Below, piece after piece: positions 31,414-32,919 of a stretch of 64,000 nucleotides of DNA. This DNA comes from Escherichia coli (lineage in GTDB: Bacteria; Pseudomonadota; Gammaproteobacteria; Enterobacterales; Enterobacteriaceae): assembly GCF_044324785.1 (NCBI RefSeq), contig NZ_CP172127.1, one strand, 5' to 3'. The notes beneath the pieces are model-generated. The model was not told the DNA's origin, did not search any database, and saw only the letters and a list, made by a program, of their open reading frames with translations. Both the position numbers and the translations under genes were made by a program. The first letter of the stretch is position 1. Each line of letters opens with the position of its first letter.

Positions 31414-32919
31414 CTATTTTTTAGCATTCGCATCCAGCGGAGCGGCATAACAACGGTAAGAAAAACATTCGCTGGAATGATTGGCGATATCTTTAAAGTT
31501 GCTTTCAGCAACCCCCTCGAACATGAGTACCGTTCTGGACAACTCTCCGTTTTTATTTATATGTGGAAAATCAAATTGGCTACTGAATCGCCATACATCT
31601 GTCTTTTCTGGCTCGCTGTTCACAGAGATACGTCGATGGAAGACCCCTCCTGTAAACGTGCGCCAGAACAATTGCTGTTCAATATCTTGTAATCCCTGAA
31701 GTTTGGTTGCGGTACTACTGCATAAATCTATATACCGTGGACTGCCATTACGAGCAACATTATGCAAACCCTGACTAAAAGCATCAAACAAACAATACAT
31801 GTGATCACTAGTGAAAAGACGTCTTAATTTGTTTTGTTCTTCATCGCTGTAATCCAGGAGCATCTCATTGATTTCTTCCTCTGAGAATTTTAGGACAAAA
31901 TTATCCTCAGGATTTGTTTCTTTCTTGTTTTTTTCAATATTCTTCTCCTCACTGCTCTTCGCATTTTTTTCCACAATTGTTTCAGCAATTTTTTTCGCGT
32001 TTTTTTTCGCAATTGTTTCCGCAATTTCTTTCGCGTTTTTTTTCGCAATTGTTTCCGCAATTTTTTGCGCAATTGTTTCCCGAGTTTTTGATTTTAGACT
32101 AACACCATCGATGTCAACCGGTGTTGTTTTCAGATCTCTCTGCGCGTCTTTCAAATTTGTCTTATAGAGATCGGGCACTTTATCGGCAGATAAGTATCCG
32201 GATGAAGAAATCTGGTGTGTACGCATGGGGGGCTGTTCACAAAGCATCGAGGCTATATCGTCTTTAAACTCTTTTACATTAAAGTTATCGGCATTAACCT
32301 TCCCTGTTATAAACCCCGCATCGGCAATTTTCTTCTCTAATTGTTTTGTACGTTTAGAATTATGAGCGTTGTTATCATAAAACTTTTCAAGAAGGGCCCA
32401 CTCCTCAAGTTGCCTTATGTGATTTTTCAACTGTTGATGATCTATTTTATATTCATGTGTACTAGAATCATTTTGATTGCAGGAGTTACAGATTTTTAAG
32501 CATAATTTTCCATCAGATTTATCATCTATGGTATCAGTGAAAATATAGGACACTTCAATACTCTGCCCGTACTTATCAGACATCTCATATGACCATTGCC
32601 CCGTTCGTTTCGCATTCTTAATGAATTCGATGGACTCTGCAGGACAACCATGAAGAATGGGCAGAATTTTATCAGGATGCTTAATGAGTAAAATTATTAT
32701 ATTTACAACGTTTGAAAAGAAATTTTTGCCATTTTTTATTTCATCGATTTTTTCCGCTGAAATGTTTACTAAGTTTTCATTTCCGGAAATGAAAAGCAAT
32801 TTGCCATGTGGGCTTTTTTTAAATTGTTCTTCTGTTTTAGAAAAGACATCCTCTTTAAAAGGTGGCAACTCAGTACCAGTAATAAACGGTTTCAATAAAT
32901 TCGAATTTGAAATTGTCAT
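31414..32919 (-). CDS. Accessory gene: hypothetical 501-aa protein with S/T/N-rich N-terminus and internal 11-residue tandem repeats
   Basis: ORF track 501 aa; SD GGAG 9-12 nt before ATG; strongly AT-rich; repeat KIAETIAKKNA x about 3; converges on acpH with only 20 bp between stops; acpH and malZ are adjacent in K-12. Confidence 0.75.
   Translation of the reverse strand: MTISNSNLLKPFITGTELPPFKEDVFSKTEEQFKKSPHGKLLFISGNENLVNISAEKIDEIKNGKNFFSNVVNIIILLIKHPDKILPILHGCPAESIEFIKNAKRTGQWSYEMSDKYGQSIEVSYIFTDTIDDKSDGKLCLKICNSCNQNDSSTHEYKIDHQQLKNHIRQLEEWALLEKFYDNNAHNSKRTKQLEKKIADAGFITGKVNADNFNVKEFKDDIASMLCEQPPMRTHQISSSGYLSADKVPDLYKTNLKDAQRDLKTTPVDIDGVSLKSKTRETIAQKIAETIAKKNAKEIAETIAKKNAKKIAETIVEKNAKSSEEKNIEKNKKETNPEDNFVLKFSEEEINEMLLDYSDEEQNKLRRLFTSDHMYCLFDAFSQGLHNVARNGSPRYIDLCSSTATKLQGLQDIEQQLFWRTFTGGVFHRRISVNSEPEKTDVWRFSSQFDFPHINKNGELSRTVLMFEGVAESNFKDIANHSSECFSYRCYAAPLDANAKK
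31965..32080. repeat. Imperfect tandem repeat, about 33-bp unit x about 3.5, inside the 501-aa ORF
   Basis: cgcaattgtttccgcaatt...tcgcgttttttttt units read directly on the plus strand; encodes (K/E)IAETIAKKNA repeats. Confidence 0.8.

Follow-up and report, generated by a model that had tools for sequence, protein, structure and literature searches.

A tandem repeat of variable copy number within an Escherichia orphan gene between malZ and acpH

Does a short, charged repeat in the middle of a bacterial gene change in copy number from strain to strain, and, where it does, are the changes an ordinary product of DNA misalignment or a switch on which selection has acted? The question is raised by a 64,000-nucleotide stretch of Escherichia coli DNA (NCBI RefSeq assembly GCF_044324785.1, contig NZ_CP172127.1), hereafter the window, whose minus strand carries at 31414-32919 a 501-amino-acid (501-aa) open reading frame (ORF), the orthologue of ECs_0454 of O157 Sakai. 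A reading of the window's sequence alone, made before our comparisons, had proposed that tandem repeats within this ORF can expand or contract by slipped-strand mispairing and so give proteins of variable length. We read the tract as a mutational hot spot and a slow variable-number tandem repeat (VNTR), more active in the lineage of the window than elsewhere, and not as a demonstrated contingency or phase-variable locus, since the sampled O157:H7 genes are essentially uniform, the frameshift of O145:H28 is fixed and the homopolymers reach only 7-8 A.

The repeat lies in frame, midway along the ORF, and is hierarchical. Its 36-bp unit encodes the 12 residues IAETIAKKNAK[E/K] and holds three 12-bp sub-units, and the tract as translated (aa 280-322) runs from a partial unit, RETIAQK, into three consecutive 36-nt units, the first two of which have a 35-nt perfect direct repeat in common. 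The ORF and the elements of its repeat are as follows.

31414-32919, minus strand: 501-aa ORF with the repeat, orthologue of O157 Sakai ECs_0454 ('hypothetical protein'), from the ORF list and its position between malZ and acpH.
31951-32082, minus strand: eleven 12-bp (4-aa) sub-units, GCGnAAAnAAyy, encoding A-x-x-[I/N/T], from the period-12 repeat call, the codon register and the 4-aa steps between alleles.
32026-32061, minus strand: 36-bp unit 1, IAETIAKKNAKE, set by codon register; absent in the two-copy and one-copy alleles.
31990-32025, minus strand: 36-bp unit 2, IAETIAKKNAKK, set by codon register; absent in the one-copy allele (L015/P0003/P0004).
31954-31989, minus strand: 36-bp unit 3, degenerate, IAETIVEKNAKS, set by codon register; kept by every allele of the window lineage.

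The sequence-only reading had placed a 33-bp, 11-aa unit at 31965-32080; listing the tract in codon register gives 36 bp on a 12-bp sub-period, one Lys having been dropped from the earlier count, and we therefore rejected the 33-bp unit. That a real repeat is present, in frame and far above chance, is nevertheless clear. Tandem Repeats Finder (TRF) calls an array at 31958-32080 with period 36, 3.4 copies, 87% matches and a score of 176, and it also calls the same stretch as period 12 (10.1 copies) and period 24 (5 copies). The runner-up array anywhere in the window scores 51, and when the local 231 bp are shuffled 1000 times with their dinucleotides preserved, the scores average 19 and never exceed 80. 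The copies thus lie head to tail, in units of 12 and 36 bp that are multiples of three, within an ORF whose integrity is itself maintained (P about 0.0002; see below).

Comparison of copy number among homologues bears out the proposal that the repeats give length-variable proteins. The gene measures 1386, 1422, 1446, 1458, 1470 or 1518 bp in complete genomes, as against 1506 bp in the window, and the homologous proteins range over 461-506 aa, mostly in 4-aa steps, with nearly all of the length differences inside the tract. Among repeat-bearing alleles, protein and DNA alignments put the differences within the tract and in multiples of 12 bp, so that the 12-bp sub-unit is the step size for most of them; in the ES5 allele (1386 bp, 461 aa) the repeat is missing entirely and the central segment has diverged. 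In 154 full-length proteins of distinct sequence, the stretch bounded by conserved anchors on either side of the tract measures 30, 34, 38 and so on up to 66 aa, plus one irregular 67.

Copy number also differs where the rest of the gene does not. Seven haplotypes with identical flanks (about 438 aa) each occur with two to five tract lengths. The window's own haplotype carries one 12-aa unit in P0003 (477 aa), two in P0001 (489 aa) and three in the window (501 aa), and a second flanking haplotype repeats the 477/489/501-aa series in the NCBI-derived entries P0004, P0144 and P0155. At the DNA level, a one-copy allele (contig L015, recorded from three contigs) is exactly 72 bp shorter than the window with 1 mismatch in about 4.2 kb, and its deletion end-points fall in the 10-nt repeat AAAAAATTGC; a two-copy contig (L016) is exactly 36 bp shorter with 3 mismatches over about 4 kb, the deletion lying between the 35-nt repeats. 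Unit-sized insertions and deletions on otherwise unchanged backgrounds, with end-points at direct repeats, therefore uphold the slipped-strand interpretation at the level of the population, the mechanism being read from those end-points.

A second kind of instability is found at the adenine runs that the Lys codons bring into and beside the tract. On the plus strand these are T8 at 32036-32043 and 32000-32007 and T7 at 31989-31995, 31964-31970 and 31928-31934, slightly shorter than the 8-9 nt first reported. Their slippage-prone character is borne out by independent +/-1 frameshift alleles at four or more A-runs (two O145:H28 genomes, 19KM1776, NCTC10444, P0159, P0161 and P0177), in each of which no stop interrupts the C-terminal frame downstream. 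Three of the runs are listed here.

32036-32043, minus strand: A8 run (plus-strand T8), A7 in contig L012 and giving P0159, from contig comparison.
32000-32007, minus strand: second A8 run, the frameshift site in P0161, from allele comparison.
31928-31934, minus strand: A7 run (IEKN), A8 in two O145:H28 complete genomes and A6 in 19KM1776, annotated 'frameshifted'.

Contig L012 matches the window without a mismatch over about 3.9 kb, its sole difference being A8 to A7 at 32036-32043; its product, P0159, a truncated protein of 342 aa with a polybasic tail, has 43 recorded blocks in the assembly collection. The IEKN A7 run is also disrupted in P0177, from an O157 strain, and NCTC10444 has a single-base frameshift at a further A-run. 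The -1 frame of the tract is an open, Lys/Arg-rich ORF of 60 aa (31890-32072, minus strand), and since the A-run frameshift alleles read into it, their truncated products end in a polybasic tail (TRKKLRKQL...ILRIILS). Slips of +/-1 at the A-runs thus truncate the protein, and unit insertions and deletions do not. In F2_81 and P0148, paired and mutually compensating frameshifts within the tract around the second A8 run (KKTRKKTRKK) show that the spacer tolerates changes in its sequence provided that its charge stays.

How unstable the tract is differs between lineages. All O157:H7/O55:H7 genes sampled are 1446 bp, except in one strain with a large deletion, and in the O157-type protein cluster nearly every member has 481 aa, a few having 473 aa or being truncated. 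The exception is E. coli O55:H7 USDA5905 (contig L010, locus 1540-3280), in which malZ has lost its 3' end to the deletion and the orphan gene has been cut down to its last 336 nt; two partial pseudogenes are left, fused to each other, with malZ joined to the gene's 3' end. The repeats of the O157 allele are degenerate, its longest perfect in-register repeat being 10 nt versus 35 nt in the allele of the window, and instability appears to scale with the perfection of the repeat. Slippage depends on the length and perfection of a repeat, and the fixity of O157 beside the variants of the window's lineage fits that dependence. The O145:H28 frameshift is fixed across two genomes and does not flicker, and the window's own clone shows several variants. 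Nowhere in the tract did we find the long homopolymer, or the unit that is not a multiple of three, expected of a contingency locus: the longest run is A8 and the unit is 12/36 bp.

The gene around the tract shows an unusual pattern of substitution. Pairwise ratios of nonsynonymous to synonymous substitution (dN/dS) among alleles are 0.5-1.7 in both halves of the gene, values of about 1, and variable sites among 11 alleles fall 67:46:75 on the three codon positions, as against 2:1:16 in acpH and 5:5:34 in malZ, neighbours with a normal third-position bias. Nonsense changes, by contrast, account for none of the 201 substitutions inferred among the 11 alleles, where the same base spectrum would predict about 9 (P about 0.0002). 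Because of this absence, the near-invariance of the last ~65 residues and a GGAG Shine-Dalgarno motif 7 nt upstream of the ATG, the ORF is to all appearances maintained as a protein, most of whose sequence would be subject to weak amino-acid constraint or to purifying and diversifying selection combined. Given such relaxed constraint, a spacer that tolerates changes in length would be unsurprising. The two parts of the gene on either side of the tract, and the chromosomal islet that holds it, have the following extents.

32095-32919, minus strand: N-terminal coding part, aa 1-275, with an invariant C140-x3-C144-x2-C147 and dN/dS of 0.5-1.7, from alignments.
31417-31896, minus strand: C-terminal coding part, aa 342-501, its final ~65 residues almost invariant and aa 395-410 mosaic, from alignments.
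31394-33106, no strand assigned: single-gene islet of low guanine-plus-cytosine (GC) content, from the acpH stop to the malZ stop, from the composition profile and the K-12 junction.

What the tract itself might do can be said only provisionally. The sequence-only reading had called the repeats helical and charged; that description is borne out weakly, 25/56 residues being charged (14 K, 10 E, 1 R) and AlphaFold2 drawing residues 277-316 as one long helix at a predicted local distance difference test (pLDDT) score of only about 55-68. The tract is probably best read as a tolerant, helical, charged spacer between N-terminal (about 275 aa) and C-terminal (about 160 aa) parts. The 56-aa tract contains nine i/i+4 opposite-charge pairs, yet also 8 Ile, 1 Val and 9 Ala in a period-4 stripe, a pattern that differs from the ER/K type of helix, with its dense i/i+4 E-K pairs and few hydrophobic residues. 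The hydrophobic periodicity is 4.0 residues, with a Fourier peak at 90 degrees and not at 100 (3.6 residues). The invariant cysteines of the N-terminal part lie in CLKICNSC (aa 140-147; window 32479-32502, minus strand), and their spacing resembles that of a metal- or Fe-S-binding motif, a likeness unsupported by any family model.

The islet that carries the gene is about 1.7 kb long, with 33-43% GC against the 50-57% of its flanks, which hold tgt, queA and acpH on one side and malZ on the other and are 98.5-99% identical to E. coli genomes. K-12 is without the islet, precisely, its malZ and acpH stop codons being 4 bp apart, and 1127 of 5426 complete E. coli genomes have it, on the chromosome every time; the position between malZ and acpH is the same in Sakai and other genomes, and the product bears the label 'hypothetical protein' in every annotation. 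A protein identical to the 501-aa product of the window is found on 236 public contigs, one of them of 5.68 Mb, yet no allele in the complete-genome collection exceeds 97.1% identity to it, and the source lineage thus seems to be absent from that collection. A scan for promoters and terminators gave no convincing promoter for the ORF, and an Rfam search of the window gave no match. Inside the islet, about 35 nt past the malZ stop, a compound hairpin at 33026-33073 (CAGCCCTGACA ... TGTCAGGGCTG, with an inner GCAGC/GCTGC stem) may be the malZ terminator, although it is without a strong T-run.

Searches for relatives of the protein returned only its own family. No Pfam, NCBIfam, PADLOC or PHROG family matched it beyond sub-threshold, composition-driven hits, a PDB profile search returned nothing below E=0.07, and an exhaustive run of phmmer against 1.84 billion cluster representatives recovered one full-length cluster at 50% identity plus fragments of the same family. 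Searches with tblastn gave no match to the gene in phages and, among plasmids, matches only to two mislabelled chromosomes, PLSDB entries NZ_CP134663.1 and NZ_CP141089.1, 4.9-Mb E. coli chromosomes filed as plasmids and the sole source of 'plasmid' matches. As far as these searches reach, the protein is an Escherichia/Shigella orphan without a detectable homologue elsewhere. We found no relevant literature on ECs0454, Z0502, Z0503 or Z0504, nor on a VNTR at malZ or on the tract.

Two other genes of the window deserve mention. A second low-GC islet (32-36% GC) holds a 525-aa ORF (15266-16843, plus strand) with Pfam pentapeptide repeats and an N-terminal WNKIRDFF, which its position and features mark as very probably orthologous to the type III effector EspY3 (ECs0472, OI-26; PMC6313403, PMC8565820). 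A 762-aa ORF with a C-terminal DUF2773 (48749-51037, minus strand), in a stretch of 40-47% GC, is probably the ydbD-like gene annotated beside rdgC in Sakai. We rejected membership of the orphan protein in the WEX5F (SopD/SifA/EspY) group, there being no Pfam match and an hhalign probability of 0.17% versus the EspY3-like neighbour; its sole W-x5-F string, W174ALLEKF, lies in the middle of the protein and without the W(E/N)KI(K/R)DFF context.

We consider it likely that this accessory gene of restricted lineages carries a coding-region VNTR, a tract that gains and loses units by misalignment and whose changes in spacer length are tolerated and nearly neutral. The segment that its units encode is rich in Lys, Glu, Ala and Ile. 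Misalignment of direct repeats, whether through replication slippage or through RecA-independent or unequal recombination, would add or remove blocks of 12, 36 or 72 bp; the units being multiples of three, the frame would be kept, and the population would come to hold spacers of 30-67 aa. If the segment forms a continuous helix, each 4-aa step would add about 6 Å to it. The Lys codons also create A7-A8 homopolymers in each unit, and a +/-1 slip at one of these would truncate the protein after its N-terminal part and add a polybasic tail of roughly 50 aa.

Several points weigh against this account. Slippage is deduced from the end-points of insertions and deletions, and the role as a spacer and the neutrality of its changes are likewise interpretations of sequence. 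The set of 154 proteins, being one of distinct sequences, over-represents variants. The Logan contigs were assembled on de Bruijn graphs with k=31, and the two-copy contig L016 is the product expected if an assembler collapsed units 1 and 2, which share 35 nt, so that it is weak evidence when taken alone; the one-copy allele, the NCBI entries and the complete genomes escape this objection. AlphaFold2 has low confidence in either of its models (mean pLDDT 39.6 for the whole protein, 47.9 for its C-terminal 160 aa), which makes the picture of two domains and a spacer provisional, and an Ile/Ala stripe of period 4 would wind round a helix, so that the tract may be no simple amphipathic or single alpha helix. 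A dN/dS of about 1, finally, could equally reflect diversifying selection, contrary to neutrality.

This last point leads to the alternative that the tract and its A-runs are an adaptive contingency locus, a selected ON/OFF or isoform switch between the full-length protein with both domains and a form that has only the N-terminal part and a polybasic tail, and also a source of antigenic or length variation in a protein that interacts with host or phage. The recurrence of independent frameshifts at four or more A-runs with an intact frame downstream, the changes of copy number on identical backgrounds, a dN/dS of about 1 within a protected ORF, and the setting in a low-GC accessory islet, with a likely orthologue of the effector EspY3 in another such islet about 15 kb away, are all compatible with it. 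We nonetheless hold it to be unlikely, as runs of A7-A8 are shorter than the homopolymers of classical phase-variable genes, in-frame unit changes cannot switch expression, the frameshift is fixed in two unrelated O145:H28 genomes while O157:H7 is uniform, and the protein as read directly has no signal peptide or surface-anchor feature. There is a very slim chance that the ECs0454 family comprises unrecognised secreted, host-interacting or phage-interacting factors under diversifying selection, in which the VNTR and the A8 runs would be a device for producing spacers of mixed length and a truncated N-terminal isoform with a polybasic tail, the isoforms arising by DNA slippage and possibly also by transcriptional slippage; if true, this would make the tract a genuine contingency locus in an enterobacterium proficient in mismatch repair. 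That the length changes are tolerated and nearly neutral, and not a programmed switch, is to us the most likely of these possibilities.

Two further alternatives would deny the variation or the gene itself. Collapse of 36-bp units in short-read assemblies and miscalled homopolymers in long reads could mimic alleles of different length, and the two-copy contig is open to this suspicion, as is the single-base frameshift of NCTC10444, a long-read-only NCTC assembly. We give very little credence to such an artefact as the general explanation, because the sequences on either side of the 72-bp deletion have only 10 nt in common, so that k-mer collapse could not have produced it, the one-copy allele recurs in three contigs and, on the second flanking haplotype, in the NCBI-derived P0004, complete genomes of different lineages differ by multiples of 12 bp, two O145:H28 genomes sequenced independently have the very same A8 frameshift, and the A7 allele is recorded in the 43 collection blocks noted above. 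The ORF could instead be a decaying or spurious frame and its repeat non-coding, AT-rich, low-complexity DNA, as the dN/dS of about 1, the nearly flat variation over codon positions, the lack of any homologue or domain, the low AlphaFold2 confidence and the fair frequency of disrupted alleles might suggest. This too is improbable, for 501 codons are kept open at about 36% GC in nearly all of 1125 genomes, the deficit of nonsense changes is unlikely to be due to chance, the C-terminal end is almost invariant, and the start codon has a Shine-Dalgarno motif 7 nt upstream. We accordingly retain the reading of a coding VNTR of nearly neutral effect.

The practical value of the locus is modest: it is a clean, previously unremarked chromosomal VNTR that could discriminate strains where the allele has near-perfect 36-bp units and that would be uninformative in O157:H7. 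It also carries a warning for assembly and annotation, in that assemblers with short k can collapse the unit and frameshifts at the A-runs make a 'pseudogene' in some lineages. Beyond this, an Escherichia-specific orphan with a protected frame and an amino-acid sequence almost free to drift presents an unusual selective signature.

Set beside known systems, the tract resembles several in part. Like the contingency loci of Haemophilus, Neisseria and Campylobacter, it combines an in-frame simple-sequence tract, truncation by +/-1 changes in homopolymers and recurrent, independent frameshift alleles; unlike them, its homopolymers are only 7-8 A, its main unit is a multiple of three and the sampled O157:H7 genomes are invariant. 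The proline-rich repeats of EspF and TccP/EspFu and the repeats of the streptococcal M and alpha-C proteins also vary in copy number in frame and so change the length of the protein, and they are longer functional modules (about 47 or 82 aa) whose proteins bear recognised signals for secretion or anchoring, whereas the unit described here is only 4 or 12 aa. With ER/K helices and with domain II of TolA (Ala/Lys/Glu) it shares a Lys/Glu/Ala-rich, predicted helical, length-tolerant segment between two parts of a protein, but it differs from the hydrophobic-poor ER/K helices in its 8 Ile and 9 Ala at a strict 4.0-residue period. Its islet is like that of the likely EspY3 orthologue, about 15 kb away, and like further low-GC islets with one ORF in the E. 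coli backbone, in consisting of a single AT-rich ORF between conserved housekeeping genes, although the orphan protein has neither pentapeptide repeats nor a Pfam SopD/Sif match.

The closest likeness is to the loci used in multiple-locus VNTR analysis (MLVA) of E. coli, both the O157 scheme and the generic CVN scheme, in which short tandem units within ORFs vary in copy number between strains by slipped-strand mispairing and are stable enough to mark lineages (PMC3877011; PMC3407997 for the CVN scheme). One of these, CVN003, is itself an accessory locus, present in sequence types ST10 and ST167 and absent from ST38 and ST405. Nothing that we found places the tract in any typing scheme; the papers on the generic scheme, which give no locus positions, make no link between any CVN locus and the tract. 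Like the coding VNTRs of MLVA, the tract consists of short units within an ORF whose copy number varies between strains; unlike them, its unit is hierarchical, 12 bp within 36 bp, and its internal A7-A8 runs add the instability of frameshifts. In its behavior, then, the tract is like an MLVA-type coding VNTR, an ordinary and well-understood kind of mutational hot spot.

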